A stretch of 64,000 nucleotides of DNA from an uncultured archaeon (GCA_964608675.1 CAZSOZ010000002.1:1-64000); one strand, 5' to 3'. Shown: positions 7,588 to 36,754, numbered from the stretch's first letter. Notes: generated by a model not told the origin, from the letters alone. Translations and numbers: made by a program.

Positions 7588-7693
7588 ATTCTTTTTTAAC
7601 CTTTTATTCACGTAATTTTTAAAGCTTATTTTGTTGCAGTTCTATTGACGAAAGCCAAGATAGTACACAGATGTCAACTGGCTGGGCAGTTGT

Positions 7694-7777
7694 GCAGGGG
7701 TGGCTGAGTGGTTTAAAGCGCCAGCTTGGAGAGCTGGTGTCCGAAAGGACGCGCGAGTTCGAATCTCGTCCCCTGCG
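7694..7777 (+). tRNA. tRNA-Ser(GGA)
   Basis: GCAGGGG/CCCCTGC-G acceptor, CCAGC-TT-GGA-GA-GCTGG anticodon arm, long variable arm. Confidence 0.95.
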
Positions 7778-8020
7778 TTCCGAGCTACTGCTCGGAAACC
7801 AGTGTACGGCATAAAGTCGTACTGCTCGCGTGAGTAGAGCATGCTATTTTCATTTCATTTGATAGCACTGCAATAAACTGATTGCATTCGAGTGTGTTAG
7901 AATATATCGCTCCATCTGCAATGGAGCATTAATATTTGATTTTAAAAAAAATTGCACGGCTTCAGCTGTGCGTTAGCCGGTTGCGTTTGATTATAATGCA
8001 TGCTGTCTGCAATAGCACTT
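7778..8020 (+). repeat. Cluster of tRNA-downstream palindromic repeats (family A)
   Basis: 7822-7869 matches the reverse complement of 54185-54232 at 44/48 nt; 7970-8020 is a decayed copy of 5521-5569. Confidence 0.8.
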
Positions 8021-8069
8021 CATTAATATTCTGTTTAGTCAGCATGCATTAAAAATCTGAATTATTTTT

Positions 8070-8654
8070 TTATTTGCTTTTTCTGAAAGGCATAAAAGAT
8101 TTAAAGAAAAAATGCTTTTTTTTGTGATGAATTATTCCTTCTTTTGCTGACCTTACGTCTTCTATTGCATAAAATGCTCTTGGATTGAATTCGTTTATTA
8201 TTTCAATTACTTTTTTTATTTTGCTTCTTTTTGTTACAATAAAAAACATTTTAACGTATCCTTCTTCTTCTGCTTCAATTGAAGTTACTCTGAATTTTTT
8301 TTCTTTTAATTGTTCAAGCATGCCTAAAGCATTTTTTCTTGTTATTACTTGAATTAAAACTGTTCCTAAAGAAAGTTTTTCTTCAATCCATATTCCAATA
8401 AATGTTCCTGCAGAAAAACCTAAAGCATAAGCTAAAGCAAGATAAATATTATCCAAATTTTTCATTATTTGTGCTATTGCTAAAAGCCAGATTAAAACTT
8501 CAATAAAGCCTATTATTGGAGCATAATATTTGAAGCCTCTGGAAATAAAAATTACTCTTATTGTTCCTAAACTTACATCTAAAACTCTTGCAGTAAAAAT
8601 CATTAAGGGAAGAAAAATAAACGCAAACAAATCTGAGTTAATTAATAAATCCAT
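8070..8654 (-). CDS. UPF0316/DUF2179 family membrane protein
   Basis: IFTARVLDVSLGTIRVIFISRG, GFIEVLIWL, YALGFSAGTFIG, FNPRAFYAIEDVR. Confidence 0.88.
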   Translation of the reverse strand: MDLLINSDLFAFIFLPLMIFTARVLDVSLGTIRVIFISRGFKYYAPIIGFIEVLIWLLAIAQIMKNLDNIYLALAYALGFSAGTFIGIWIEEKLSLGTVLIQVITRKNALGMLEQLKEKKFRVTSIEAEEEGYVKMFFIVTKRSKIKKVIEIINEFNPRAFYAIEDVRSAKEGIIHHKKKHFFFKSFMPFRKSK

Positions 8655-8697
8655 ATTTCACTAGTTTATGTACAGTAAGCTCTTTAAATCTTTTTTT

Positions 8698-8934
8698 TTA
8701 AATTAATAAAAAAATTACTGCAAATAAACTGAACATTATTGTTGAAAAAGCCCTGTTATAGTAAGCAATTAAAGCAATGAATAATGGAATTACTGCCAGC
8801 CAGCTTAATTCTTGTTGAATTAAAATCATTCCTGTTATTATTCCTGCAAAAAACCATATGTATGTAAGGCTTACAAACAAGGTTGCTCTGCTTTCAAAAT
8901 ATTCCAGTAATTTTTTTGTTATTTCTACTGCCAT
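8698..8934 (-). CDS. Small hypothetical membrane protein
   Basis: 78 aa hydrophobic ORF with ATG. Confidence 0.6.
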   Translation of the reverse strand: MAVEITKKLLEYFESRATLFVSLTYIWFFAGIITGMILIQQELSWLAVIPLFIALIAYYNRAFSTIMFSLFAVIFLLI

Positions 8935-9025
8935 AACTTATTTTCCTTTAAAAAAAGTTTTTATTGCTTTTGCTGAAAAAAAGACTATTTTTAAAATAAG
9001 AATTAGTCTTTTTTTTTGTATTATT

Positions 9026-9111
9026 GCGGGAGTCCCATAGTCCGGTCAATTGGACACGGTTGAGGGCCGTGTGGCTTAGTGCCTTCGAGAGTTCGAATCT
9101 CTCCTCCCGCA
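9026..9111 (+). tRNA. tRNA-Leu(GAG)
   Basis: GCGGGAG/CTCCCGC-A acceptor, CACGG-TT-GAG-GG-CCGTG anticodon arm, variable arm. Confidence 0.93.
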
Positions 9112-9114
9112 TAA

Positions 9115-9276
9115 TTATTTTCTAATTAATGATACAATCAATAAAATCAAGAAAATTATTGCAGGAATTTTTGTTATGCCTGCAAACATCCCTTTAATTT
9201 TATTAATTCAAATAATCCTGCAACTAAAGTCAGAATTAAAAAGTATTCCTGAATACCTTAACAATTTTTTTTTCAT
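9115..9276 (-). pseudogene. Frameshifted small two-helix membrane protein (DUF1328/UPF0391-like)
   Basis: MKKKLLRYSGILLILTLVAGLFELIKLKG then a shift to MFAGITKIPAIIFLILLIVSLIRK*; one-base slip near 9190. Confidence 0.4.
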
Positions 9277-9280
9277 TTAA

Positions 9281-9541
9281 TTAAAAAGCTATTCCAAACA
9301 CGTCAAGTAAAATCAACAAAATTATTCCCGGAATTCCTCCTAATGCAGCAATTAATACACTCCAAAAATTAATGTTAATTTGAATTACAGGAAAAAAATT
9401 CAGCAAAGTTATTGCGATTATTCCTAAAATTCCGTTTACTATAAGCCAAATCACTGCTTTTCCTGCTTTTATTGCCAGATAAATAACTGCAAACAACAAT
9501 AAAAGGCTCAACACAGGCCCTAACCATAAAACTTCAACCAT
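9281..9541 (-). CDS. BofA-like (pro-sigmaK processing inhibitor family) membrane protein
   Basis: LIVNGILG...ININFWSVLIAALGGIPGIILL pattern. Confidence 0.75.
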   Translation of the reverse strand: MVEVLWLGPVLSLLLLFAVIYLAIKAGKAVIWLIVNGILGIIAITLLNFFPVIQININFWSVLIAALGGIPGIILLILLDVFGIAF

Positions 9542-9638
9542 AATTTCACCTTACAATAACTTGCTTTTTTTGTTTTAATTTAATTAACTTTAGTTTTTTT
9601 AAAAAAAAAGAAGAAAATAAATCAAATAATTTCTTTTT

Positions 9639-10661
9639 TTATTCTAAATGGTTTTTTCTTAGTTGTGCTCCGCTTGTAAATCTTGTTCCTGCTTTTTGTT
9701 TTCTGATTTTGTCTATTTTGTCTATTTCTTTTTGCATTTTCCAAGTCCTTAAATGAACTTCTATTGGAACCTTGTTTTCTCCTAAAAAATAAAGAACATG
9801 AATTGAACGATAAGGCACTTCAGTGGAAACATCTTGATAATATTTTGGGTTTCTTACATAATCTTTTGATTCCCTTATTTTTCCTTTATTGCTTTTAATC
9901 CATTCGTCCAGCAAAGACTTAATTTTATATAAATCTTCTTTTGTTCCTGCAACAATCCTTAAACCTAAAGCTTCAAGGGAAATTCTTTCAGCCATTGTTT
10001 CAGTTAATTTTTCTCTTAATTTTTTTCCCAGTTTTTGTCTTTTTCTTTCATTTAATGCTTTGTTTAAAAATCTTCTTGTTTTATCCATTCTTTTATTTAA
10101 TTCTTTTAAGTCTCCAGGCACATAAATGCCTCTTTCCATTTTTACTTTATAGTCAAGCAGGTAATTCAGTTCTTTGTTCCATTTGTTTATTCTGCTTATA
10201 CTGCTTTCAAGCCTGTTCATTTTTTTCAGAACAGTTTGCTTTTCTTTTAGATTAAGGTCTTTTGAAGCCTGAACTGTCTGCCTTATTTTTTGAATTTCCC
10301 TGTTATTTAATAATTCTGGTTTCTCGCATTTCCTAGAAAAATTGTTTATTGCATCATTCAAGGACTTAAATGTTTTTACTCTGGTAAAAAACCAGGGTTT
10401 ACTGTTTAATTCTGTGTTATTTATCCTTGCCTTAAATCCTTTTTTTATTTTTGTAAGCATGTGTCTTCTTACAGCATAATCATCAAAAGAAAACAATCTT
10501 TTTTGTTGTATAAGCCGATTTCTTATTCTTTCTTTTGCTTTTTTTTCTTTTACCAAAAAAATAGCGTTAAATACTTTTCCTGTGGCTTTGGATGCAAGAT
10601 GCTTTACTCTTGTTTTAGCTTTAAATAAAGAACTCACTTTATTTGTTTTTTTTGCAGGCAT
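9639..10661 (-). CDS. RelA/SpoT synthetase-domain (small alarmone synthetase-like) protein with helical insertion
   Basis: RVKTFKSL, EALGLRIV, KDYVRNPK, YRSIHV, IEVHLRT..MQ correspond in order to RSH SYNTH motifs. Confidence 0.72.
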   Translation of the reverse strand: MPAKKTNKVSSLFKAKTRVKHLASKATGKVFNAIFLVKEKKAKERIRNRLIQQKRLFSFDDYAVRRHMLTKIKKGFKARINNTELNSKPWFFTRVKTFKSLNDAINNFSRKCEKPELLNNREIQKIRQTVQASKDLNLKEKQTVLKKMNRLESSISRINKWNKELNYLLDYKVKMERGIYVPGDLKELNKRMDKTRRFLNKALNERKRQKLGKKLREKLTETMAERISLEALGLRIVAGTKEDLYKIKSLLDEWIKSNKGKIRESKDYVRNPKYYQDVSTEVPYRSIHVLYFLGENKVPIEVHLRTWKMQKEIDKIDKIRKQKAGTRFTSGAQLRKNHLE

Positions 10662-10712
10662 AAATAAACAATATTTTTAGTTATTTAAATTATTTTTGCT
10701 AAAAAAAAAGAA

Positions 10713-11084
10713 TTAAAGGATTTCAATGTGTTCATTGTTGAATTTTTTGAGCCTTTCTTTTAAAGAAGAAGGTTTTTTTTCTTGATGCATTAATGCACTG
10801 GAATTAAATGAACTTCTTGTTTCAACTGTATTTTTTTCTGTTTGGAATTCAATTTTTGGTTCAGTTTTTTGAATCCGCCTAGAAATGTTTTTCGGCTGAA
10901 AAACAGAAGTTGAATCAGAGTTATTTTGATTTCCTTGAACTCTTTTTGCTGCAATAAAAGAATTAATTACATCAATTGAATCTTCTTTCATTATTCCAGT
11001 GTATGAACATTTTTTGCACTGCATTTCAATGCCATTTGCCTGCAATTGAATTGAACCGCATTGAGGACAGTATTTCATTTTCAT
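10713..11084 (-). CDS. Zn-ribbon protein with low-complexity tail
   Basis: N-terminal CPQCGS...CKKCSYTG. Confidence 0.7.
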   Translation of the reverse strand: MKMKYCPQCGSIQLQANGIEMQCKKCSYTGIMKEDSIDVINSFIAAKRVQGNQNNSDSTSVFQPKNISRRIQKTEPKIEFQTEKNTVETRSSFNSSALMHQEKKPSSLKERLKKFNNEHIEIL

Positions 11085-11151
11085 ATTTTTTCACAACAAA
11101 AGACTGCATATAATAAAACTATTCTCATATTTAAAGCTTATGATTATTTTT

Positions 11152-12087
11152 TCATTTTTTTTGAATTAAATCAGAAATACTGAATCTTCTTTTTTTTGGT
11201 TTGGGTTCTTCTTCTGCAAATCCTTCAAGAGAACTTTCGTCTTCAAATTCTTTTTCTAAATCCTTGTCGTCCAGTACTTCTTCAAAAACAGTTTGATTTG
11301 ATTTCATTTTATGCATTTGATATAATAATGCAAGCAATACAAGCAGGGCAATCAAAAAAACTGCTCCTTTCCATGCATTGTCAACAGAAAAATTATAGAA
11401 GCCTGTTAAATAATTTTGTTTTTTTTGGCTGTCCTGCAGTATTTCTTCACTTTTTTTTTCTGTTTCCTGTGCAGGAATTTCTTCTTCTTTTAATTCATTT
11501 AGTTTGCTTAAAGTTTCTTCTAATTCGTTTATTTCTTTTTCCAGAGAGCTTGTTTTTTGTTCAACGTTTTGTTCAGTTGAATTCTTTAATTGTTCTAATT
11601 CTTGCCTGCCTTCATTTATTTTTTTTATTATGCTTTTCATTAAAATGTCTACATCTTCTTTAAATGAATCAGGCATGTTTTGGATTGCAGTAATTGTATT
11701 AATTGCTTTTACTTCAAATTCTTTTTCTTCCACTAAACTGCTTTGATTAAAAGTTTTAATTTTTATTGTATGTTTTCCTTCAGGTATTCCAAAATAAGAT
11801 GCAAAAACAGTTAACCCTGAATTTTCTTCAGGATTTTTGTCAAACATGAATGCCTTTAAAACAAAATCTTCTTCTATTACAGGCTGTTTGTCGTTGTATG
11901 CAGTGATAATCAGCATTTCATCAAAATAAATAAAAGTTTTGGTAAATTCATTGGTTGGATTTAATTCAACTGAAAAACTCCAGTTTAAGTTTGCAGGAAT
12001 TTCTTTTGAAGCATTAATTTCTGCTGAATAAACGCTTGAAACAAGCATTACAAAAAACAATAAAATTAATTTCTTTGATTTTTTCAT
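11152..12087 (-). CDS. Exported/membrane-anchored coiled-coil protein
   Basis: Signal peptide, Glu/Lys coiled coil, C-proximal TM helix, acidic tail. Confidence 0.7.
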   Translation of the reverse strand: MKKSKKLILLFFVMLVSSVYSAEINASKEIPANLNWSFSVELNPTNEFTKTFIYFDEMLIITAYNDKQPVIEEDFVLKAFMFDKNPEENSGLTVFASYFGIPEGKHTIKIKTFNQSSLVEEKEFEVKAINTITAIQNMPDSFKEDVDILMKSIIKKINEGRQELEQLKNSTEQNVEQKTSSLEKEINELEETLSKLNELKEEEIPAQETEKKSEEILQDSQKKQNYLTGFYNFSVDNAWKGAVFLIALLVLLALLYQMHKMKSNQTVFEEVLDDKDLEKEFEDESSLEGFAEEEPKPKKRRFSISDLIQKK

Positions 12088-12171
12088 TTAAATATAATGT
12101 TTTTTGTTTTATTAATTCTTTTTGTTTTTTTTTTATTTGATTATTTAAATATTTTCTTTCATTTTATTTTT

Positions 12172-12630
12172 ATGATAAAAAGAAAGGCTTTAGTGTCTTT
12201 TGTGGCTTCAGCTGAAACAATTAAGATGGCTGAAATAGTCAAACAAGAACTAGAAAAAAAGAATTATTCAGTTAATTTAACAGAAATAATTAAACACAAA
12301 AAACAACCAAAAAAAAAAGGGTTAGTTAACTTGAAGTCAGGAAAAACTGACTGGAAATCCTTTGATTTAATTGTGTTAGGTTTTCCTGTAATTGGAATTT
12401 CTTCTTCTCATTTAATGAACGATTACTTAAAGCAATGCAAAAACATTTCAGGAAAACAAACCGCGGTTTTTATTGGATGCATCGGCTTGCACGGCAATGC
12501 CTTAAAGAAAGTGTCAAGCATTATTTCTTTTTACGGCGGAAAATTAAAGGATTCAATTATTGTTTCATCTTTTTTGGGTTTAAATGAAAAAAAAACAGAA
12601 AAAGTGAAAGAATTTGCTTCAAATCTTTAA
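12172..12630 (+). CDS. Flavodoxin-like fold protein
   Basis: FDLIVLGFPV, ISGKQTAVF; degenerate FMN loop; start reassigned to ATG 12172. Confidence 0.6.
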   Translation: MIKRKALVSFVASAETIKMAEIVKQELEKKNYSVNLTEIIKHKKQPKKKGLVNLKSGKTDWKSFDLIVLGFPVIGISSSHLMNDYLKQCKNISGKQTAVFIGCIGLHGNALKKVSSIISFYGGKLKDSIIVSSFLGLNEKKTEKVKEFASNL

Positions 12631-12727
12631 GAAAAAATTTAAATACAAGTTTTGTTTTCTTATTTTTGCAGGGGTTTTTTTTATAGTATATGAAAACAAT
12701 GTAAACGGAAACAACAAAACAAATTTA

Positions 12728-13171
12728 ATGCATTTATATACTTTCAATGAACTCAATAAAATGCATTTAAACAATGAACTGGAAATAAAAAAAATTTGTC
12801 CTGAACAATCTGTTTTAATTCATTCAAAAAACAATTCCAATTTATGTAATGAAGGAAGATTTGATTTTTTAGTGGAAACCAAACAAAGCAAAATAATTGG
12901 AATGGAAGTCCTCACAAGACCCAGCAAAGGAAAAATGAAAAACAAGTTAAGATATGCAAGAGAAGCAGATGAATTCATTTTTGTTTTGCCTTTAAATTCT
13001 ATGGAGTTTTACAGGAAACCAGAAAAAAAAGGGTTTCCTAAAAAAGTTAAATCCAAGTTTTTTGGCAGAGAATTTTCAGATAAAAACCTTTTTGTATGGT
13101 TGCTGGATTTAAAAAAAGGTTTTATTATAAAAAATTCTTTTAATAAAATATTCAATGTTTCATTAAAATAG
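12728..13171 (+). CDS. Hypothetical protein, possible PD-(D/E)XK nuclease fold
   Basis: EQSV...GRFDFLV...IIGMEVLT...KLRY; start uncertain. Confidence 0.5.
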   Translation: MHLYTFNELNKMHLNNELEIKKICPEQSVLIHSKNNSNLCNEGRFDFLVETKQSKIIGMEVLTRPSKGKMKNKLRYAREADEFIFVLPLNSMEFYRKPEKKGFPKKVKSKFFGREFSDKNLFVWLLDLKKGFIIKNSFNKIFNVSLK

Positions 13172-13207
13172 AAACCTTTATTAATATCTATTCCTTTCTT
13201 TTTTTTC

Positions 13208-13894
13208 ATGAAAAAATATTTTTTGTTTGCTTTGCTTGTTTCAATTCTGTTGTTTTCAGGATGCATTAAAATTCATATTAACCAGAAAATTTATTCAAAT
13301 TATGATTCAGACATAGAAATGGAAATGGATTTGTCTGGTGCAATGGGTTTAATGGGTTCAATGCCTGATGCAAACAAGAATTCTTTTGCTGATATCTGCA
13401 AGAATTTTGAAAAAAAACAAACAGAAAAACTAGAAAACTTTAAATGTGAAGCAGACGAAGAAAATTATGTTGTTAAAGTTTCAGGAACAACTTCTTTGAA
13501 AGACACAGAAGCACTGCAAATTGAAAACGGAATCCTAACAACAAAATATAGGTATGATGCTTCAAAAGGCAAAGATTATTTGAATTCACTTGAAGCTTCT
13601 GATACTTCAGGTTCAATGAATTTATCTGAAGAAATGAATGAAGAGCAAATCCAGTACTTGAAGTCAGTCGGAGTAGAAATGATTTATGCTCTTGAAATGC
13701 CCGGCAAAATAATTCATTCAGATGCAGGAGAAATAAAAGACAACAAAGTAGTAATTGACTTATTAAATTTAACCGGAAAAGAAAAAGTTTATATTGAATC
13801 AGAAGAACTAAACATTCTTCCATTAATTGCAGTTATAATTGCAGTGATTGCAGTAATCTTGTTTTTGTTTTTTAAAAGAAAAGGTTCAATTTAA
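13208..13894 (+). CDS. Lipoprotein with C-terminal TM anchor (LppM-like)
   Basis: LFSGC lipobox, LEMPGKIIHSDA, C-terminal hydrophobic helix followed by KRK. Confidence 0.7.
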   Translation: MKKYFLFALLVSILLFSGCIKIHINQKIYSNYDSDIEMEMDLSGAMGLMGSMPDANKNSFADICKNFEKKQTEKLENFKCEADEENYVVKVSGTTSLKDTEALQIENGILTTKYRYDASKGKDYLNSLEASDTSGSMNLSEEMNEEQIQYLKSVGVEMIYALEMPGKIIHSDAGEIKDNKVVIDLLNLTGKEKVYIESEELNILPLIAVIIAVIAVILFLFFKRKGSI

Positions 13895-13940
13895 TTCGGC
13901 TTTCCTTTTTAAACTTTTTTTAAGTCTTTTTTATTAGTAT

Positions 13941-14144
13941 GGGCCTGTAGCCTAGTGGATAAGGCATCAGCCTTCTAAACTTTTTTCGCAAAAAAGTTTA
14001 ATCAAAAAAGCAATCTTTTCTACGAAAAGATTGTGCATGATTATCTTTTGATTAGGTGCAGTGCGAGTTTATCTCGCACGTTTTGTTGCACCTTTTGGAA
14101 AAGGCGCAAGCTGAGGATCGGGGGTTCGAATCCTCCCAGGCCCG
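13941..14144 (+). tRNA. tRNA-Arg(TCT) with 131-nt intron at 37/38 (13978-14108)
   Basis: 5' exon GGGCCTG...TCAGC-CT-TCT-A; 3' exon A-GCTGA-GGATC-GGGGGTTCGAATCCTCC-CAGGCCC-G. Confidence 0.88.
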
Positions 14145-14190
14145 TCGCGATTCCGCTCGCGAGTCACGAGTGCTATCTAAAGATAGCACC
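14145..14190 (+). repeat. tRNA-downstream palindromic repeat (family A)
   Basis: GCTCGCGAGT...GTGCTATCT-AA-AGATAGCAC (14170-14189). Confidence 0.75.
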
Positions 14191-14273
14191 GTTATAAACG
14201 TTTTGTAGTTTAATCTTACTTATAAGAAAATCTTATATATTGGTTTGTTTACTGTTATTATTGAGGTGGTTTA

Positions 14274-14519
14274 ATGCAGGATGTTGAAACAACCAGAATG
14301 TCCACTAAAGGGCAGGTAATTATTCCTAAAGATATAAGGGATTTTACTGACAGCAGGGAAGACACTATTTTTACTGTTTTTCCTATTGACAAAAAAACTA
14401 TTGTTTTGAAGAAACTGGATAAACAAAAAATTATTGCTGAGTTCAGGGCTTTAAGGAAAAAAGTTAAAAACAAGATTTCTGAGGCAGAAGTAAATACAAT
14501 TGTCCATAAAGTCAGGTAA
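14274..14519 (+). CDS. AbrB/MazE/SpoVT-family antitoxin-like DNA-binding protein
   Basis: TTRMSTKGQVIIPKDIR; GAGGTGG RBS. Confidence 0.85.
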   Translation: MQDVETTRMSTKGQVIIPKDIRDFTDSREDTIFTVFPIDKKTIVLKKLDKQKIIAEFRALRKKVKNKISEAEVNTIVHKVR

Positions 14520-14571
14520 AATCAGAGTGGTTCTTGATACTAATATTGTTGTTTCTGCTTTGATTGCTTAA
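14500..14571 (+). pseudogene. Truncated PIN/VapC toxin remnant
   Basis: Overlapping frame reads KIRVVLDTNIVVSALIA* (PIN N-terminal motif) and stops after 23 codons. Confidence 0.7.
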
Positions 14572-14574
14572 AAA

Positions 14575-16398
14575 TTAGTTTTCACTGATTTTGGGCCAAA
14601 TTAAAGTGAAAACAATGATTGCAAGAGCAAGAATTAATAAAAGCAGAATTTGAGGAATTAAATGAATTAATGGAGTCCCTCTGATTATAATTGAAGTTAA
14701 AAGGTCTATTGCTATTGTTAAAGGAAGGATTTCGCTTATTGTTCGAATAAAAGAAGGCATAAATGAAGTCGGCAGAATCATTCCGCTTAAAAAAACTAAT
14801 GGAACTGAAATCAGCAAAGAAGACAAAATTGCAGTTGACTGCGTTTTAGTAAAAGTTGTAATCAGCAGTCCAATTGAAATAAACGTGAATGAAATTAAAA
14901 TTAACACAAAAATTAATTCCCATATTTCTCCATGAGGAATCACTCCGAATCCAGTTAAAGCTACAATCAAAATTAATGCTGCTTCAAATAAAGCAAAAAC
15001 CATTTGGCCTGAAATTTTTCCTGTAATCCAAGTTAAATTCATTGTAGGAGAAAGTTTTGCTCTTAATTCTGCTCCCTGATTTTTTTCTAAAATAGTTGAA
15101 ATGCTTGTCAATAAAAGCGAAGTTAAAAGCAAAACTATCGCTATTGCCATTGGAGTAATAACTGAAATTTCAGTTGAAGCATACAATGGTTTGCGGGAAA
15201 TTTTCACAGGCCTTACAATTGCATCAGGAGAAACAGAACTCAGATTGTCAAGTTTTGTTGAAAGCTCCTGCATTTGAATTTTTGTTTCCTCTAAATCCAT
15301 TAAAATTGATTCCCTTGAACTTTTTGCTTCTGTAATCATTAATTTTATTTCATTCAGTGTTTCCTGCATTGAATTAACTGTATTTTTAAATGACTGCACA
15401 CTGGAGTTAGCGGAATCAAGCCGTGCATTAATTACATTTAAATCATTTAAAGTCTGATTTAATTTTGTTTGAGTGCTGTCAATATCAATTAACGCTTGAT
15501 TTAATTCGTTTATAGTTAAATTAAGTTCATTTATTACATCATTTAACTGGTTTTCTGCGTTAATTAAAGAGCCTTGTAATTCTGCAGGAGACACGCTTTT
15601 AAGGTAAGTTATCTGGGATTTAATTGAATACAATTGATCACGGTAAATAATCAAATTGTTTCTTTCTCTTTGAATTTTTGTTTTGTAATCTGAAAGTTTT
15701 CCTTGTGCTGAAATAATTTCATTTCTTGTGTCTGCAATTGAATTTTTTGCGTCCGTGTAATATGAATCAAATTCATTTAATTGATTCTGCATTGAAGTTA
15801 AATCAAATAAATTCAATCTTTTTTCAAGGTTGTTTAATTCATATTTTGTTCCTTCAAGTTTTACAATAAAATTGTTTATAGTGTTGATTTCCTGGTTTAC
15901 TGTTGTTTTAATTGTTTCAAGGTTATGAATCATTTCTTCAAGTATTTCTGTTGCTTTAGTGTAGCTTACTTCATTCAAAATTGTTTCGGTTACAAACAAA
16001 GTGACTTGTGTTTCAAGCAAACTTGAATTATCGTAAATTAATTCAACGCTTACAGGAGAACCAATTGAATGTTTTTCTGCAATTAATCCTATTTTAATGT
16101 TTCTTTTGTTTATTGCATTTCTTACTTCTTGTTCTGAATTAAATTCAATTAAATTCACTGCCTGATACAAACTTAATTCTGAAATTAATTCATTTATTTG
16201 TTCAGTGTTTTCAGGAGAATAAAATCCAATGTTTACTTCAGAAAAAGCGCTTCCTGTTCCTGTAAAAATGTTTACGTTTCCGAATGCTGCTCCAATTGCA
16301 AAAATGGTTATTATTGGAAAAAAGAAAATTAACATTAAAGAAATTTTTTGGGTTTTAATTAATTTCAGTTCCTTTAATGCAATTTTAAATAACTTCAT
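14575..16398 (-). CDS. ABC-2 transporter permease with long extracellular coiled coil (YhgE/Pip-like)
   Basis: KIALKELK N-terminus, central heptad region, C-terminal TMs with FLSGMILP..MP and PLT. Confidence 0.85.
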   Translation of the reverse strand: MKLFKIALKELKLIKTQKISLMLIFFFPIITIFAIGAAFGNVNIFTGTGSAFSEVNIGFYSPENTEQINELISELSLYQAVNLIEFNSEQEVRNAINKRNIKIGLIAEKHSIGSPVSVELIYDNSSLLETQVTLFVTETILNEVSYTKATEILEEMIHNLETIKTTVNQEINTINNFIVKLEGTKYELNNLEKRLNLFDLTSMQNQLNEFDSYYTDAKNSIADTRNEIISAQGKLSDYKTKIQRERNNLIIYRDQLYSIKSQITYLKSVSPAELQGSLINAENQLNDVINELNLTINELNQALIDIDSTQTKLNQTLNDLNVINARLDSANSSVQSFKNTVNSMQETLNEIKLMITEAKSSRESILMDLEETKIQMQELSTKLDNLSSVSPDAIVRPVKISRKPLYASTEISVITPMAIAIVLLLTSLLLTSISTILEKNQGAELRAKLSPTMNLTWITGKISGQMVFALFEAALILIVALTGFGVIPHGEIWELIFVLILISFTFISIGLLITTFTKTQSTAILSSLLISVPLVFLSGMILPTSFMPSFIRTISEILPLTIAIDLLTSIIIRGTPLIHLIPQILLLLILALAIIVFTLIWPKISEN

Positions 16399-16402
16399 TT
16401 TT

Positions 16403-17377
16403 TCACTCTTTTTCAGTTTTTTTTATTCCTTCAGCTTTTCCTGTTAAATTCAAAAAAACGTTTTCTAGGTCAGGTTCTTTTATAGTTGTTTTTGTTATGT
16501 TTAATCCGTTTAAGATAATTAACCGGTTTATTTTAGATAAAGCATTTATTTCATTTTTTCCTTTATAGACAATGTTGATTTTTTGGCCGTCTATATGAAT
16601 TGAATTTCCTAAAGCTTTTTCTAAATCTTGTTTGGTTTTTTCTGGAATAGGCTTGTCTGTTTCAAATTGAAAGTTTTTTTGTCCGCCAAAACTTTCAATT
16701 AATTCATATGGAGACTTGCATACAAAAATTTTTCCTTTCATTATTAATGCAACTCTGTCACATAATTCTTGTGCTTCATCCATGTAATGCGTTGTAATAA
16801 ACAAGGTTTTCTTTTTTTGTTTTAATTCAATTAACTTTTTCCATAACAGTCTTCTCATGTCTGGATCTAATCCAACTGTTGGTTCATCCAAAAAAATAAA
16901 TGAAGGATTGTAAACCAAAGAGCATGCAATGTTAAGCATTTTTCTGTATCCTCCTGAAAGATTTTCTGCTTTTCTGTTTTTGAAATAACTTAAATTAAGC
17001 CAGTCCAGCAAAAAATTAATTCTTTCCTTTAATTTTTTTCCTTTTATGCCGTACAATGAACCAAAAAAAGAAAGGTTTTCTTCTACTGTAAAAAACCTGT
17101 AAAAAGAGTCTTCCTGCGGAACAAAAGCAACATGTTTTTTTAATTCAAGGTTTTTTGGATTAAATTTTTCAAAAAAAACTGCTTTTCCTGAATCAGCTGT
17201 ATTTAAGCCGTTTAAAATTTTAATTAAAGTGCTTTTGCCTGCTCCGTTTGGCCCAAGCAAACCGAATATTTCTCCGCCAAAAACTTCTAAGTCAACGTCA
17301 ACCAAAACTTTTTGTTTTCCGTATGCTTTAGATAAATCAGCTGTCTTCAAAACTGTTTCCATGCTATTAAATAACAA
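16403..17377 (-). CDS. ABC transporter ATP-binding protein
   Basis: GPNGAGKST, LSGG, FLDEPT, TTHYMDEA. Confidence 0.95.
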   Translation of the reverse strand: MLFNSMETVLKTADLSKAYGKQKVLVDVDLEVFGGEIFGLLGPNGAGKSTLIKILNGLNTADSGKAVFFEKFNPKNLELKKHVAFVPQEDSFYRFFTVEENLSFFGSLYGIKGKKLKERINFLLDWLNLSYFKNRKAENLSGGYRKMLNIACSLVYNPSFIFLDEPTVGLDPDMRRLLWKKLIELKQKKKTLFITTHYMDEAQELCDRVALIMKGKIFVCKSPYELIESFGGQKNFQFETDKPIPEKTKQDLEKALGNSIHIDGQKINIVYKGKNEINALSKINRLIILNGLNITKTTIKEPDLENVFLNLTGKAEGIKKTEKE

Positions 17378-17450
17378 AAAGAACTATAAAAACTTATCCG
17401 ATTTCTAAGACTGAATCTTTTAGTTTATTAACTTTTTTGCTTTAATTTAT

Positions 17451-19154
17451 TTGAGGCTCATGAATCTAAGAAATGAAATTGGATTAAAATTAGCGGAAAT
17501 TCTTTCTTTTCCTGAAGAAAAAATAATTGAATTAATTGAAGTTCCTCCTTCAAAAGAATTAGGGGATTATTCTCTGCCGTGCTTTAAGTTTTCATCTGAA
17601 CTAAAAAAACCTCCTCAGGAAATTGCTTTGAATTTAAAGAAAAAAATTGATTCCAAAAAAATTAAGTTCATTAAATCAACTGAAACCAAAGGGCCTTATC
17701 TGAATTTTTTTCTTGATTATGATTTCACTGCAAAAAAAATTGTTTCAGAAATCTTAAAAGAAAAAAACAGGTTTGGATTTAATTCTCACGGCAAAAACAA
17801 AAAAGTTATGATTGAATATTCTTCGCCAAACACAAACAAGCCTTTGCATATCGGCCATTTAAGAAATGATTCAATTGGAATGAGTTTAAATAATTTATTT
17901 AAAGCAAACGGCTTTAATCCAATTAAAGCAATACTCATTAATGACAGAGGCGTTCACATCTGCAAGTCAATGCTTGCCTACAAAAAATTTGGAAAAAACC
18001 AAAAACCGAACAAAAAATCTGATCATTTTGTTGGAAACTATTATGTTTTGTTTAACCAGAAAACTGAATCAAATCCCGAATTAGAAAAAGAAGCAATGAA
18101 CTTGCTTGAAAAATGGGAAAAAAGAGATAAAGAAACATTAAAGTTATGGAAGAAAATGAATGACTGGAGCATTAAAGGATTGTTTCAGACTTACAAAAAA
18201 TTTGGTTCAAAATTTGATGTAATTTACAGGGAATCAGATTACTTTGATAAAGGAAAAAAATTAATTGAAAAAGGACTTAAAAAAAATGTTTTCAAAAAAG
18301 ACAAACAAAAAAATATTATTGTTGATTTAGAAGAATTTGATTTAGGAAAAAAAGTTGTTTTAAGAAACGACGGAACATCAATTTATTTTACCAACGATTT
18401 GATTTTGTCAGTGGAAAAATTCAGGCAGTTTAACTTAGAAAAAAATATTTGGATTGTGGGTTCAGAGCAAAATTTTTATTTCAAGCAGTTGTTTAAAACA
18501 CTTGAATTGCTGGATTTTAACTGGATAAACAAATGCATGCATTACAGTTATGGAATGGTTTATTTGCCTGAAGGAAAAATGAAGTCAAGGGAAGGAAAAG
18601 TAGTTGATGCAGACGATTTAATTCAGCAAATCACTGAATTAGCAGAAAAAGAAATCAAAAAAAGAAACCCAAAACTAAAAGAAAAAGAATTAAAATCAAG
18701 AGCCCAAGCAATAGCTTTGGGTGCAATAAAATTCTTTTTGCTTAAAACTGATTCAGTTAAAGACATTTATTTTAATCCAAAAGAAAGCATTTCGTTTGAA
18801 GGAGAAACATCTGCTTTTGTTCAATATGCTTTTGCCAGATGCACAAGCATTTTAAGGAAAACAAAAAAACCCAAAAAATTTGAATTCAAAGACTTAACAG
18901 AAGAAGAAAAAAATCTTGTTTATGTTCTTTCATTGTTTCCGGAAAAAGTTTTGTTTGCTTTTAATTCTCTTTCTCCTCATATTTTGTGTCATTATCTTCT
19001 TGATTTAGCTTCAGCTTTTAATTTGTTTTACCAAAACTGCAGGGTTTTAGAGGGAAACCAAAAAAATTCAAGGCTTGCTTTGGTTGAAAGCACTTCAATT
19101 GCCTTAAAAAACGGGTTAAATTTATTAGGAATACAGGAACTAAAAAATATGTAA
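17451..19154 (+). CDS. argS: Arginine--tRNA ligase
   Basis: EYSSPNTNKPLHIGH, KMKSREG, QYAFAR, C-terminal LGI..LKNM. Confidence 0.96.
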   Translation: MRLMNLRNEIGLKLAEILSFPEEKIIELIEVPPSKELGDYSLPCFKFSSELKKPPQEIALNLKKKIDSKKIKFIKSTETKGPYLNFFLDYDFTAKKIVSEILKEKNRFGFNSHGKNKKVMIEYSSPNTNKPLHIGHLRNDSIGMSLNNLFKANGFNPIKAILINDRGVHICKSMLAYKKFGKNQKPNKKSDHFVGNYYVLFNQKTESNPELEKEAMNLLEKWEKRDKETLKLWKKMNDWSIKGLFQTYKKFGSKFDVIYRESDYFDKGKKLIEKGLKKNVFKKDKQKNIIVDLEEFDLGKKVVLRNDGTSIYFTNDLILSVEKFRQFNLEKNIWIVGSEQNFYFKQLFKTLELLDFNWINKCMHYSYGMVYLPEGKMKSREGKVVDADDLIQQITELAEKEIKKRNPKLKEKELKSRAQAIALGAIKFFLLKTDSVKDIYFNPKESISFEGETSAFVQYAFARCTSILRKTKKPKKFEFKDLTEEEKNLVYVLSLFPEKVLFAFNSLSPHILCHYLLDLASAFNLFYQNCRVLEGNQKNSRLALVESTSIALKNGLNLLGIQELKNM

Positions 19155-19174
19155 GAAAAAAAAAGGTTTTTAAA

Positions 19175-20971
19175 ATGAAAAAATTAGATTATAATGAATT
19201 GCTGAAAAAACTTTTAGATAAATATTATGCTTACAACAAAAAAGAATCCAGTTTAATTAGAAGAGCATTACATGCTTCAAAAAAAAAACTTTTAGCAAAA
19301 AATTCGCTGATTTTTCTTGAAAGAAAAGATGAAATTTTTGGCTCTGAATTAATTTCAAAAGCTTTTTGGTATTCAAAAAAAAAGCATTCAAGACAAAAAA
19401 GGTTTTCTGGAGAACCTTATTTTATTCATCCATTTAATACTGCTTTATATTTAGCGGAAATGGAAACGGATGCTGCTTCAATTTCTGTTGGACTTCTTCA
19501 TGATGTAGTTGAAGACACTGAAACAGACGTAAAAGAAATAAAAGAAAATTTTGGAAAAGAAATTGCGTCTCTGGTTGAAAGCCTTACAAAATTAAGGTTA
19601 ATGGTTAAAATAAGCGACAGAAAAGAATACAATACTGCTTTGCAGAAAATACTTCTTGCAACAACAAAAGATGTAAGGGTTTTGCTGATAAAACTTGCAG
19701 ACAAACGGCATAATTTAAGAACACTGCATTATCTACCAAAACAAAAACAGATTTCTATTGCTTCTCATGCACTGGAATTTTATGTTCCTCTTGCAAAAAA
19801 ACTTGCTTTGCATGACTTAAAGGATGAATTTGAAGAAATCTGCTTTAAAATAATTAAGCCAAAAATTTATTCTAAAATAAAAAAAAGAATGAAGAACAGC
19901 ATTAAATTAAAAGAAGAAGAAATGAAGTTAATGGAAGACAAACTTGAAAAAAAACTGGATAAAGCAGAACTTAAAGTTGAATTTCATAAATATAAAAGAA
20001 CTGCTTACAGTGTATTTAAAAAAATGACTCAAAACTTTAAGTCTTTCACTGAAGTACAGGATTCAGTTGTATTAATTTGTTTAACTAACACAAAAGAAGA
20101 ATGTTATGAATTTCTTGGAATTCTTCATAATACTTTTTCTCCTCTTCCCTTAAAATTCCGCGACCATATGTCTTTGTCTCAATTAGATTTATATAAATCA
20201 ATTCATACTACAGTTTTGGGTCCAAAGCATTCTCCAATTAAAGTTTATATTAGAACAAAAGAAATGCAGTCTTTGATTGACAGGGGAGTAGCTGAATTAC
20301 TGCGTGAATCAGAAATAGACAAAGAACATTTCAGCAAAAACGTTTCATTACTGCATAATTTAATGTCTATAAACATAGATGAACTTTCAACTGAAACTTT
20401 TATTGATTCACTTAAAACTGACTACTTAAAGGACAGAATTCTTGTTTTTACTGATAATGGAAAATTAATTGAACTGCCAAGAGGTTCTTCGGTTATTGAT
20501 TTTGCTTTTGCTTTGGATCCAAAAATGGGAATTAAAGCAAGAAAAGCAAAAGTGAACGGCAAAACAGTTCCAATCTGGCATAAATTAAACAACGGAGACC
20601 TAGTGCAGGTATCAGTTGGAAAAAAGAAAACTGTTTCAAGGGTCTGGAAAAATTTTGCTATTTCAGCCAAAGCAAGAAATGAAATAGAAAAAAACTTGAA
20701 GGGAAAAAAACAAAAAAAACAAAAAATGCCTTTGGTTTCAATTGAATTCAAGGCTTTGGACAGACCAGGCTTAATAAAAGATTTCGCTGAAGTTTTTCTT
20801 GAAGTTAAAGCAAACATTTTTTCTGCTGAAATCAGGACAAGCCAGGAAAGCGGAATAGGAAGAGATTCTTTTACAATTGAATTAGAAAGTCCTAATCAAT
20901 TAGAAGAATTAATTAAAAAATTAAAAAAAATAAAAGGAATTCTTGAAATTAAAGCAAAATATATTGAATGA
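19175..20971 (+). CDS. Long RelA/SpoT homologue: HD hydrolase, degenerate synthetase, TGS, ACT
   Basis: HSRQKRFSGEPYFIHP, LLHDVVEDT, IKLADKRHNLRTL; TGS LPRGSSVIDFAF..AKVNGK; ACT DRPGLIKD. Confidence 0.9.
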   Translation: MKKLDYNELLKKLLDKYYAYNKKESSLIRRALHASKKKLLAKNSLIFLERKDEIFGSELISKAFWYSKKKHSRQKRFSGEPYFIHPFNTALYLAEMETDAASISVGLLHDVVEDTETDVKEIKENFGKEIASLVESLTKLRLMVKISDRKEYNTALQKILLATTKDVRVLLIKLADKRHNLRTLHYLPKQKQISIASHALEFYVPLAKKLALHDLKDEFEEICFKIIKPKIYSKIKKRMKNSIKLKEEEMKLMEDKLEKKLDKAELKVEFHKYKRTAYSVFKKMTQNFKSFTEVQDSVVLICLTNTKEECYEFLGILHNTFSPLPLKFRDHMSLSQLDLYKSIHTTVLGPKHSPIKVYIRTKEMQSLIDRGVAELLRESEIDKEHFSKNVSLLHNLMSINIDELSTETFIDSLKTDYLKDRILVFTDNGKLIELPRGSSVIDFAFALDPKMGIKARKAKVNGKTVPIWHKLNNGDLVQVSVGKKKTVSRVWKNFAISAKARNEIEKNLKGKKQKKQKMPLVSIEFKALDRPGLIKDFAEVFLEVKANIFSAEIRTSQESGIGRDSFTIELESPNQLEELIKKLKKIKGILEIKAKYIE

Positions 20972-20973
20972 AA

Positions 20974-22317
20974 TCAGATTTTAATTTTTTCAACTTTCTT
21001 TAATGTTTTAGGAAGCTCTTTTTTCATTTGTTTTGCACTTTTTAATGCAAGCCATTCACATACTTCCTGTGGAATTTTGTCTTTTTTTGAATAACCTTTT
21101 CTTTTAATTCTTTTAATCATTACATCTGAAACAGTTTTTTTTCTGGAAATTATTTCTTTTAAGGGATTCAATAATTTTTGGTATTCTTTTGGAACTTGTT
21201 TTGATGCAAACTTCAAAAACTTTTTAGAATAATCAAAGACATCTTTGTTGTCAAAACCGTTTTTTGCTGATTCAATTTGCAGGTAATGCCTTAAATAAGT
21301 AATTGGAGGAACATGAATTGTTTTTCCCTCAATTTTAAATGGTTCTTCTTTTCCTAAATCTGAAGGTTTTACTTCATAAAATTCCTGCTGAATTTTTCTT
21401 AAAATGAATTTCATTAAAATGCTTGCTGAAACAAAATATTTAGGCTGGCATACATCTGAATTTCTTGCTTCAAGTGTTCCTAATTTGTTTATTTTAACAG
21501 GATTCCAAACTAAATCCAAAAACTCTTTTTTCTTTGCTTCATTATATAACCCTAAAGACTTCATGTTTTGTTTCCAAAAATTGTCTGCATATTTTGTTTT
21601 ATATTGCAGGTCTTCTAAAGTTAAAACATAAGGAGGCAGCGCTCCAAACAATTTTTTTCCTGTATATAATCCCCCAGAATAAATTTTTCCTCCTCTAAAT
21701 AGCGCCATCCTTGAATCTTTCATTAAAAATTTTTGGTTAACATAAGGAGAACTCTGAAGAAGAGTTGTTATTCCGGGATCAACTGCAATAATTATATTAT
21801 AACTGCTTAACAGTGTTTCTTTTACTTTTGATTTAACTAAAGGCTTTAATTTTTTGTAATTGGAATCAAATACTCCGAAAGGAAGAGTGTAATGCATGTG
21901 AAAAGCAGCAATCCTTGAAGTAATAAAAGAATAATCTTTTTTTCCAAAAACTTCTCTGAACAATTTTTCTTGAAGCAAATACCTTTTTTCGTTTGTTATT
22001 TTTTCTTTAAATCTTCCAGGGTAAGTTGATAAAGGCAAAAGCATTGAATTTTTTTCTTCCAGTTCTCTGGAAACAAATAAAATTTGTTCAAGTTCGTTGC
22101 AAATGGAATCTTTTATTGCAGGATAAGGATTTGATTGAATTTCAATTAAGTTTTCTGTTGCTTCAGTGTCGATATTGTAGTTTGGTTTCTTTTTTTTTAA
22201 TAAAGGAACTAATTCAGGAACTTTTGCATTAATTTTTCCCTGTGAATCAATTAAATTAAACTCTAATTCCAATCCTGTTAATGATCTTTTAATGACTTTT
22301 TTTTTTCTTTTTTTCAT
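20974..22317 (-). CDS. Glutamate--cysteine ligase family 2 (carboxylate-amine ligase)-like protein
   Basis: TGLELEFNLID, LIEIQS, AFHMH, SSPY, DSR, GTLEAR..D. Confidence 0.7.
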   Translation of the reverse strand: MKKRKKKVIKRSLTGLELEFNLIDSQGKINAKVPELVPLLKKKKPNYNIDTEATENLIEIQSNPYPAIKDSICNELEQILFVSRELEEKNSMLLPLSTYPGRFKEKITNEKRYLLQEKLFREVFGKKDYSFITSRIAAFHMHYTLPFGVFDSNYKKLKPLVKSKVKETLLSSYNIIIAVDPGITTLLQSSPYVNQKFLMKDSRMALFRGGKIYSGGLYTGKKLFGALPPYVLTLEDLQYKTKYADNFWKQNMKSLGLYNEAKKKEFLDLVWNPVKINKLGTLEARNSDVCQPKYFVSASILMKFILRKIQQEFYEVKPSDLGKEEPFKIEGKTIHVPPITYLRHYLQIESAKNGFDNKDVFDYSKKFLKFASKQVPKEYQKLLNPLKEIISRKKTVSDVMIKRIKRKGYSKKDKIPQEVCEWLALKSAKQMKKELPKTLKKVEKIKI

Positions 22318-33152: not shown

Positions 33153-33180
33153 GTTAACGCATTGGAAAGTCAAATGATTA

Positions 33181-36163: not shown

Positions 36164-36389
36164 TATCCGATTGACTTTCCAATGCATCAACCGTCACGCC
36201 CGGTTGACGTGCGCGCAGTATCTTCGCTTTCGCTCGATACAGCTTACTCGCCAATGGCCGTTTATAACGATTGCTTCCCCCAAGAAAAAACTCCTGGAGT
36301 GCGTTAACATCACAATAATTTTGTGAACATGATTTTAGTTTGAATTTCAATTTATTTTTTCGTTATTTGAATTCCAAACCAAATTTATC

Positions 36390-36447
36390 AGAAACTTTTC
36401 GAAGAAAAGTTTCTTTTTTTTGATACAACTTTTTTAAAAAAAGTTGT
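36390..36447. repeat. Tandem AT-rich hairpins (family B) 3' of the spacer tRNA-Ala
   Basis: AGAAACTTTTC-GAA-GAAAAGTTTCT and ACAACTTTTTT-A-AAAAAAGTTGT. Confidence 0.65.
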
Positions 36448-36448
36448 T

Positions 36449-36522
36449 TGGACTCAACGGGATTCGAACCCGTGGCCTCCTGGTTGCAAACCAGGCGCTC
36501 TACCAAGCTGAGCTATGAGCCC
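36449..36522 (-). tRNA. tRNA-Ala(TGC), 16S-23S spacer
   Basis: GGGCTCA/TGAGTCC-A, CCTGG-TT-TGC-AA-CCAGG. Confidence 0.96.
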
Positions 36523-36754
36523 AAAAAGCTGTCACGTCCAGCTTGCATACGGGTACAATCTTCGCTTAAGCCTTTGCAAGCAAACGCTTGCGAAAACAAG
36601 GGATGAATCCCTCCAGCTCGATTGAGCTGTTATCCAGCTTTGTCCATTAAAAAAAAATTGCAGTAAATGAACCTTAAAAAAGGCAAATTTTTTTTGAACC
36701 TGTTTTGGTTCCGATACTTCCAAAAGAAATACCGGAACCTTAGGTTCTAATTGA

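Follow-up and report, generated by a model that had tools for sequence, protein, structure and literature searches.

We analyzed a 64,000-nt stretch of DNA from an uncultured archaeon (GCA_964608675.1 CAZSOZ010000002.1:1-64000, hereafter the window) that encodes P0001, a long RelA/SpoT homologue (RSH) predicted to hydrolyze the alarmone (p)ppGpp without producing it. We propose that P0001, of a hydrolase-only type noted [Hs], and P0003, a predicted synthetase-only long RSH noted [hS] and encoded elsewhere in the same genome, constitute a two-gene make-and-break alarmone circuit, that the two are paralogues issued from a duplication in the archaeal lineage, and that a third protein, the small synthetase-like P0002 of the window, is accessory to them. 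We would give this reading a probability of about 70%. The stringent response is regarded as a bacterial and plastid trait. A first-pass annotation of the window had already proposed that synthesis and degradation are divided between two genes in this archaeon. The split itself is borne out by our analysis, but the partner of the hydrolase appears to be P0003, on contig C1, and not the open reading frame (ORF) of 340 amino acids (aa) encoding P0002 that had been put forward.

P0001 matches four Pfam families arranged in the order HD-SYNTH-TGS-ACT (Table 1), and since its HD_4 and RelA_SpoT matches both exceed the cut-offs, the N-terminal layout of a long RSH is present. The Pfam E-values obtained for P0001 (4.5e-35) and for P0002 (7e-09) are far beyond chance, and full-length homologues exist elsewhere for both proteins. 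In an alignment to RelSeq (1vj7), all the hydrolase residues of P0001 are kept, namely R76, H85, H109, D110, E113, D114, D176 and N180, which correspond in that order to R44, H53, H77, D78, E81, D82, D144 and N148 of RelSeq. The synthetase residues of RelSeq are replaced: R241 by Y273, K243 by R275, R269 by I301, E323 by K356 and Q325 by Y358. With its catalytic Glu changed to Lys, the Gln changed to Tyr and the ATP-binding Arg residues gone, the pseudo-synthetase domain is thus predicted to be a dead site. As described in PMC13299517, H53, H77 and D144 of RelSeq bind Mn2+, the R44Q and D78A substitutions abolish hydrolysis, and D264G and E323Q abolish synthesis. Given these published roles and the residue states of P0001, the protein should hydrolyze without synthesizing, and we predict it to be a monofunctional (p)ppGpp hydrolase of class [Hs] that would work like SpoT. 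This is in line with the first-pass annotation, which had described the gene as a hydrolase-only long RSH with intact hydrolase motifs and an eroded synthetase.

The C-terminal region of P0001 comprises a TGS and an ACT domain and contains neither the helical AH/RIS region (PF19296) nor the zinc-finger domain (ZFD) motif; its layout appears to be a shortened form of that of the long RSHs. With the NCBIfam model TIGR00691, P0001 and P0003 score 431 and 461.3 bits, both below the cut-off of 499.2, i.e. as divergent members. P0001 obtains 321 bits with the SpoT model NF008303 (cut-off 947) versus 209.9 with the RelA model, both scores being again under the cut-off.

A profile search of the whole genome returned three RelA_SpoT loci and two HD_4 loci. 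P0003 is a second long RSH of 609 aa, located at G000:C1:194969-196798, and scores 122 bits with RelA_SpoT, 72.1 with TGS, 32.5 with ACT_4 and only 63.9 with HD_4. P0001 shows the opposite pattern, with 121.1 bits for HD_4 and 61.3 for RelA_SpoT. P0003 has every synthetase motif intact. In its hydrolase domain, the HD motif has become HE and no ED pair is left, with Asn and Ser at the positions equivalent to H53 and D144, respectively. The ZFD-type CC...H...C motif and the TGS His are both kept. Against the RelA equivalog model NF008124, P0003 scores 339.6 bits for a cut-off of 728. We consequently predict P0003 to be a synthetase-only enzyme of class [hS], likely to work like RelA and forming the mirror image of P0001.

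We then considered an alignment of 268 sequences, made of 240 homologous proteins together with ORFs taken from fetched loci, of which 28 out of 30 were used; L011 and L017 had no ORF that passed the motif filter and were left out. The sequences were grouped by a few catalytic columns and conservation was read on columns that had not been used for sorting. This gave 147 bifunctional sequences of bacterial length, 16 short bifunctional ones, 57 [hS] and 48 [Hs]. The equivalents of R44, H53, D144 and N148 are kept in all [Hs] sequences (48/48). In the same group, the equivalent of R269 is lost throughout (48/48) and that of E323 is a Lys in 44/48, and the pocket of the pseudo-SYNTH domain is partly kept, with D264 present in 48/48, K251 in 47/48, Y308 in 43/48 and H312 in 38/48. 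Conversely, the [hS] sequences keep K251, Y308, H312 and R327 without exception (57/57) and D144 in only 8 of 57. The TGS His is found in none of the 48 [Hs] sequences, in all 57 of the [hS] and in all bifunctional sequences (163/163). The columns of the ZFD motif are empty in the [Hs] rows, and the precomputed domain annotations of the archaeal hits do not include PF19296. The [hS] type was also encountered at every one of 20 additional second-copy loci, drawn from 13 families: each of them (20/20) has kept the synthetase motifs, the TGS His and the ZFD cysteines and has lost HDxxED.

One could assume that these genes are relics, or that they have been repurposed, for example with an HD domain acting on a different nucleotide like (pp)pApp or on alarmone imported from neighbours, and that there is no endogenous (p)ppGpp signalling. 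To our knowledge the alarmone is unmeasured in these organisms, genomes with [hS] alone exist, and the shortened architecture of [Hs] and its lost TGS His point to a changed regulation, all of which would suit such an assumption. However, the active sites are fully conserved (hydrolase 48/48, synthetase 57/57) at identities of 31-47% between families for these RSHs, the synthetase retains the Tyr that stacks on guanine and the His of the G-loop, gene order is conserved, and the genes are retained in genomes of 1 Mb. Because active sites conserved over so deep a divergence, a conserved gene order and retention in 1-Mb genomes argue for selection on catalysis, we hold relics or repurposing to be the least probable of the explanations considered here.

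The contig is archaeal and belongs to the Iainarchaeota/Diapherotrites, in DPANN. The large-subunit (2541.7 bits) and small-subunit (1408.6 bits) rRNAs of the window and its RNase P RNA are all of archaeal type, the G+C content is about 30%, and homologues of the genes studied bear the source name 'Candidatus Diapherotrites archaeon'. RelA_SpoT is found in 162 of the 215 genomes of the phylum, that is 75% (45/58 of the high-quality ones), and HD_4 in 139 (44/58), with at least two HD_4 loci in 75 genomes, one in 64 and none in 76. Two loci are present in each of the nine genomes of the family to which the window belongs. In one genome of the phylum, G163, both paralogues lie on a single contig of 853 kb, which argues against a binning artefact. 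We rejected contamination or misbinning in view of the archaeal rRNA and RNase P RNA on the same contig as P0001, of the orthologues in 162/215 genomes and of this shared contig of G163. Only one genome (G020) has an [Hs]-type hit as its single HD_4 match, and it has two RelA_SpoT matches; in the 215 genomes examined, [Hs] was never seen without another RSH.

Other RSH forms were also encountered in the phylum. ORFs of about 460 aa with a strong RelA_SpoT match occur in genus g15 of family f8 (e.g. G026:C1:524677-525012), where HD_4 is found in 0/7 genomes. A 206-aa ORF (G177:C4:148478-148795) with a RelA_SpoT score of 111 bits looks like a classical small synthetase.

The first-pass annotation had started from the premise that long RSHs are not standard archaeal genes, which needs to be qualified. 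A survey of RSHs described archaea as devoid of long RSHs in 2011, with only a few small ones in euryarchaea (PMC3153485). Their presence in DPANN was published in 2021: as described in PMC8407392, 69.0% of the Diapherotrites genomes carry RelA/SpoT, which also occurs in three further DPANN groups and for which a bacterial origin is predicted. These are genes of the same family in the same phylum, for which we obtain 75%. As far as its main text goes, that article does not separate two paralogues and does not deal with dead sites, linkage to argS or a small third enzyme. In full-text literature searches, limited to main texts, we came across no paper describing the split pair, the linkage to argS or the small enzyme. 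The presence of RSHs in these archaea is thus already published, and what is added here is the split [Hs]/[hS] pair, the argS linkage and the small enzyme.

Three trees were computed on subsets of rows that we chose ourselves (120 of the 268 aligned, then 68, then 60), near-duplicates being thinned and the bacterial rows being in part a random sample. For the last subset we ran a careful IQ-TREE analysis (LG+C20 PMSF, 60 rows x 630 columns, support given as ultrafast bootstrap/SH-aLRT) with 12 [Hs], 14 [hS] and 10 short bifunctional sequences, 22 bacterial Rel from many phyla, and RelA and SpoT from Escherichia coli; 13 of the bacterial rows came from a profile search of genome contigs with the short bifunctional forms (at least 80 loci, all of bacterial title). 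[Hs] and [hS] form clades in all three trees. In the 60-row tree, their supports are 100/100 and 99/88, respectively, all 24 bacterial rows come together (100/99), and [Hs] plus [hS] are split off by a branch supported at 97/95 from every bacterial row, E. coli RelA and SpoT among them, as well as from the short bifunctional sequences. With the root placed among bacteria, the archaeal [Hs] and [hS] are sisters, which suggests a duplication of their own, independent of the one that gave rise to the proteobacterial RelA and SpoT. P0001 is not orthologous to proteobacterial SpoT, since E. coli SpoT falls within the bacterial clade (97/95), and P0003 is not orthologous to proteobacterial RelA either, as judged from the same tree and from its NF008124 score below the cut-off. 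The nearest non-archaeal relatives of both are the Firmicutes-type Rel enzymes, at 36-42% identity. Most likely, then, a single Rel-type gene of bacterial origin was duplicated within the archaeal lineage, after which each copy lost the active site that the other one kept.

Another explanation would be that different bacteria each donated one of the two long RSHs, an already SpoT-like gene in one case and a RelA-like gene in the other. This would agree with the bacterial origin predicted for the DPANN RelA/SpoT (PMC8407392), with the preference of NCBIfam for the SpoT model in the case of P0001 and for the RelA model in that of P0003, and with the poor resolution of the three-way split in our two earlier trees. 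Yet the paralogues join each other in the 60-row tree, with all 24 bacterial rows outside, both have the same Firmicutes-type Rel as their closest bacterial hits, and PF19296 is missing from both. Furthermore, among chains of known structure, P0001 scores 326 bits with Bacillus subtilis Rel (6yxa) and only 172.5 with Acinetobacter baumannii SpoT (7qpr) and 177.6 with E. coli RelA. We find two separate acquisitions quite unlikely.

Several points nevertheless weigh against the duplicated make-and-break pair that we favour. The sister relation of the paralogues depends on the root being assumed among bacteria. Many rows of the tree fail the composition test, and both archaeal clades are AT-rich, a bias that could attract them to each other. 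The 60-row tree places a Chloroflexi Rel next to E. coli RelA, a grouping that is surely wrong and indicates limited resolution, and the three-way split was weakly supported in the earlier trees (SH-like 93 with 120 rows, SH-aLRT 68 with 68 rows). The helical AH/RIS region is missing from both archaeal enzymes and the ZFD is also missing from [Hs], so that a RelA-like, ribosome-dependent control is uncertain. Two near-complete genomes, G083 (99% complete, one contig; locus L056) and G150 (97%; L055), possess [hS] alone with no other HD_4 hit; presence of the synthetase thus does not require the hydrolase, at variance with the rule in bacteria. Either these two organisms remove the alarmone with another class of enzyme, or 'no synthetase without hydrolase', as it holds in bacteria, does not apply to them. 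P0002 may also contribute to synthesis in the window's organism, in which case the pairing suggested by the first-pass annotation would come as an additional link. Finally, we know of no detection of (p)ppGpp in these archaea.

The ORF encoding P0002 is a real gene with a genuine RSH synthetase domain, as the first-pass annotation had recognized. It has a single SYNTH domain, with no HD, TGS or ACT match, which is the domain content of a small alarmone synthetase (SAS). In an alignment of the six members of its family, R94, K96, S100, E230, G233, R235, Y284, S286, H288 and R305 are invariant (6/6), and the Glu of the PIE motif is present in five members and replaced by Asp in the sixth. This is the motif set of the RSH synthetases, except that the metal-binding Asp is replaced by Glu. 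With the family profile, matches were obtained to RelP (6fgj, E-value 5.3e-10) and RelSeq (1vj7, 5.1e-08). An AlphaFold2 model of P0002 (pLDDT 80.0, pTM 0.63), with a strand at residues 90-95 and helices at 138-176 and 185-207, finds its best fold matches in RelP, RelSeq, Rel, CapRel and FaRel2. The global TM-scores of these matches are low, with local alignments of about 100 columns at 3.4-4.0 Å, which is consistent with the insertion of a helical hairpin of about 70 residues and with the basic N-terminal tail of P0002. This tail, of about 88 residues, has a net charge of +21; other proteins of the organism are also basic (isoelectric points of 9.6-9.8). In the ESM Atlas, the best scores (0.87) are obtained with RelA_SpoT clusters and, being below the level that counts, constitute only a lead. 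NCBIfam and PADLOC returned no match for P0002.

The family of P0002 is very small. Among 1.84 billion representatives, only 9 proteins are found at E <= 0.001 and 5 at E <= 1e-10; one full-length homologue has 63% identity and four more have 36-40%. The distant relatives P0260-P0263 have the basic N-terminal region and the catalytic motifs in common with P0002, and one of them, P0260 (545 aa), has a long C-terminal extension. No P0002 homologue is present in the eight other genomes of the same taxonomic family (0/8), though all of them have the hydrolase. When the proteins of the 196 genomes in the order were searched, G155 alone had a true homologue, the nine other hits being weak and mostly due to the synthetase domain of long RSHs. 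G155 (75% complete) has only a weak HD_4 hit and none of [Hs] type, and its P0002 homologue lies on a 2.2-kb contig without context. In G014, a genome of the same genus, the flanking regions are syntenic with the window, but other genes take the place of the variable segment that contains P0002 (Table 1).

These data bear directly on the pairing proposed by the first-pass annotation, in which the 340-aa ORF and the hydrolase, 8.5 kb apart, are the two halves of a split system or else an alarmone toxin/antidote pair. Both are indeed real genes on one contig, the catalytic motifs of P0002 are all kept, so that the resident hydrolase could degrade its product, and, as described by Atkinson et al. 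(PMC3153485), transfer of a SAS is easier where a hydrolase is already present. On the other hand, P0002 does not co-occur with the hydrolase among the genomes of the same taxonomic family, its sole other carrier in the order is devoid of an [Hs]-type HD_4 hit, and G014 lacks it at the corresponding position, whereas the conserved long synthetase paralogue P0003 is present elsewhere in the genome and, across the phylum, does co-occur with the hydrolase. As to a toxin/antidote pair, no dedicated antitoxin-like neighbour was found: the Zn-ribbon gene upstream of P0002 is conserved in G014 in the absence of P0002 and is thus not a dedicated antitoxin, a BofA-like ORF lies downstream, PADLOC is empty, and no conserved two-gene antitoxin arrangement of the toxSAS type was seen. 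We therefore regard both versions of this pairing as very unlikely. P0002 is best read as a third, accessory and rare SAS-like enzyme, with a predicted intact active site, that would have been gained sporadically and was possibly tolerated because the hydrolase was already resident.

We also considered that P0002 could belong to a mobile element. Around the ORF, a search for flanking direct repeats and att-like sites gave only low-complexity matches and the likeness of the T-arms of two tRNAs, and neither Pfam nor PADLOC revealed an integrase or a defence system; a mobile element is thus not supported by these searches. The BofA-like ORF just downstream of P0002 (86 aa, window 9281-9541, minus strand) matches PF07441 with 50.7 bits; the family is named after a bacterial sporulation regulator.

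From the sequences, we infer the following mechanism for the [Hs]/[hS] pair. The [hS] enzyme would make (p)ppGpp from ATP and GDP or GTP, and its intact TGS His and zinc-finger domain suggest a retained capacity to sense uncharged tRNA, for which the ribosome is a possible site. The [Hs] enzyme would remove the 3'-pyrophosphate at its Mn2+-dependent HD site. Its dead SYNTH domain, TGS and ACT could serve as a regulatory scaffold of the HD site, as in Acinetobacter SpoT, and the partly preserved pocket of the pseudo-SYNTH domain may still bind a guanine nucleotide. If co-transcribed with argS, the hydrolase would be produced in step with the translation apparatus. One could go further and imagine a complete RelA/SpoT-style circuit evolved by these archaea themselves through duplication of a single acquired gene, with a tRNA-sensing [hS] activated on archaeal ribosomes, [Hs] expressed with argS, so that alarmone removal would follow the translation apparatus, and using its pseudo-synthetase pocket as a guanine-nucleotide sensor, and P0002 acting as a toxSAS-like effector, on tRNA or through (pp)pApp, kept in check by the hydrolase. 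So elaborate a circuit is unlikely in our opinion.

A parallel can be drawn between the archaeal make-and-break pair and the Moraxellaceae. As described in PMC9974481, A. baumannii possesses a RelA[hS] and a SpoT[Hs] (7qpr) proven to be hydrolase-only, in which the pseudo-SYNTH and TGS domains act as regulator and scaffold. The two situations share the reciprocal loss of activity, with a pseudo-HD domain in one protein and a retained pseudo-SYNTH domain in the other. Moreover, as in Acinetobacter SpoT, the residues coordinating ATP and nucleotide are replaced in the dead SYNTH domain while the domain itself is kept, and in the hydrolase the TGS has lost its tRNA-sensing character. The archaeal pair differs from this precedent by its separate origin in the tree and by the low score of P0001 with 7qpr. 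Its proteins are about 100 residues shorter, both being without AH/RIS and the hydrolase also without ZFD. It operates in an archaeal host, with archaeal ribosomes and a hydrolase gene in a putative argS operon, and its activities are so far predicted from sequence. The Rel of Firmicutes (6yxa; RelSeq 1vj7) provides the nearest solved relative of P0001, with the same HD-SYNTH-TGS-ACT order and identical hydrolase residues. It differs in having both activities in one chain, versus one per archaeal paralogue, and in possessing the AH/RIS and ZFD that P0001 lacks; the identity is about 36-38%. P0002, for its part, resembles RelP and RelQ (6fgj, 6ex0, 5dec) and the toxSAS proteins (CapRel 7ztb, FaRel2 8pu4), which are its best profile and fold matches, by its single SYNTH domain and its RxKxxxS, (D/E)xxGxR, YxSxH and ExQxRT motifs. 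It is distinguished from them by a weak similarity, by the Glu in place of the metal-binding Asp, by its basic tail and hairpin insert, by its tiny family and by the absence of a conserved antitoxin pair.

A conserved make-only and break-only pair that arose independently of the proteobacterial split would represent a second natural experiment in the subfunctionalization of Rel. With two defined proteins, the use of (p)ppGpp by archaea becomes directly testable. The shortened architectures, devoid of the helical region and, for the hydrolase, of the ZFD and the TGS His, could also inform us on which domains are needed for control.

The genomic context of the two long RSHs is conserved as well. 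The first-pass annotation had placed the hydrolase 20 nt after argS, with alaS nearby, and the coordinates are as it described. Over 30 [Hs] loci from many genera, argS is directly upstream on the same strand in 21; the loci without it are L009, L012, L018, L019, L020, L023, L025, L026 and L034. No terminator-like site was seen in the spacer sequence between argS and the RSH of the window, and the two genes could well be co-transcribed. In the same-genus genomes G014 and G012, alaS adjoins the RSH.

Table 1. Main features of the window, numbered from its first nucleotide.
Feature	Position	Strand	Remarks
Long RSH P0001, 598 aa, predicted hydrolase-only type [Hs]	19175-20971	+	Four Pfam families
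HD hydrolase domain of P0001, HD_4 (PF13328)	19361-19804 (residues 63-210)	+	121.1 bits; 124.5 in genome search
Pseudo-synthetase domain of P0001, RelA_SpoT (PF04607)	20000-20296 (residues 276-374)	+	61.3 bits
TGS domain of P0001	20444-20611	+	51.6 bits; conserved His of the ...IH... motif missing
ACT domain of P0001, C-terminal	20735-20950	+	ACT_4, 52.3 bits
P0002, small alarmone-synthetase-like protein, 340 aa, isoelectric point 10.4	9639-10661	-	RelA_SpoT alone
SYNTH fold core of P0002 (ExxGxR, YxSIH and PIExxxRT motifs)	9729-10034 (residues 210-311)	-	RelA_SpoT 36.4 bits, cut-off 27; 39.9 in genome search
RxKTxxS motif of P0002 (R94, K96, S100)	10362-10382	-	Helical hairpin of ~70 residues between motif and rest of fold
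Variable segment	~7600-10700		tRNA-Ser, DUF5698/DUF2179 gene, tRNA-Leu, BofA-like ORF, P0002
argS (arginyl-tRNA synthetase)	17451-19154	+	tRNA-synt_1d 155.7, DALR_1 103.7, Arg_tRNA_synt_N 57.2 bits (Pfam); directly upstream of the hydrolase, same strand
A-rich spacer, 20 nt	19155-19174	+	From argS stop TAA (19152-19154) to RSH ATG (19175)
alaS	22369-25023	-	tRNA-synt_2c 306.8 bits; convergent with the RSH

The [hS] gene has a conserved neighbour of its own. A single-domain KaiC-like ATPase of 247 aa (G000:C1:196885-197625) lies directly downstream of it on the same strand in the window's genome and in 17 of 20 loci, and the class I lysyl-tRNA synthetase gene adjoins this pair in 7 of 20. The ATPase shows 61-94% identity across the phylum and is a single-copy core gene, present in 176/215 genomes. 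The idea of an obligate partnership with the RSH was rejected: families f32 and f34, for which few or no RelA_SpoT matches are listed, have the ATPase, and f8 lacks it (0/22) although 12 of these 22 genomes have an RSH. A prediction of the complex between [hS] and the ATPase gave a score of 0.00, which is uninformative in either direction. We thus read this adjacency as a conserved gene order only and not as a functional link.

In the window, the RSH and alaS are separated by an ORF of 447 aa without any Pfam family (20974-22317, minus strand). At this place, G014 and G012 have no corresponding ORF, and alaS comes directly after the RSH. The window also contains a complete archaeal rRNA operon (33179-38240, minus strand) with a tRNA-Ala in its spacer and a G+C content of 37-48%, versus about 30% elsewhere. 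Two tRNAs detected by Rfam on the plus strand (2528-2628, 101 nt, and 13941-14144, 204 nt) and uncalled by ARAGORN are probably intron-bearing archaeal tRNA genes.

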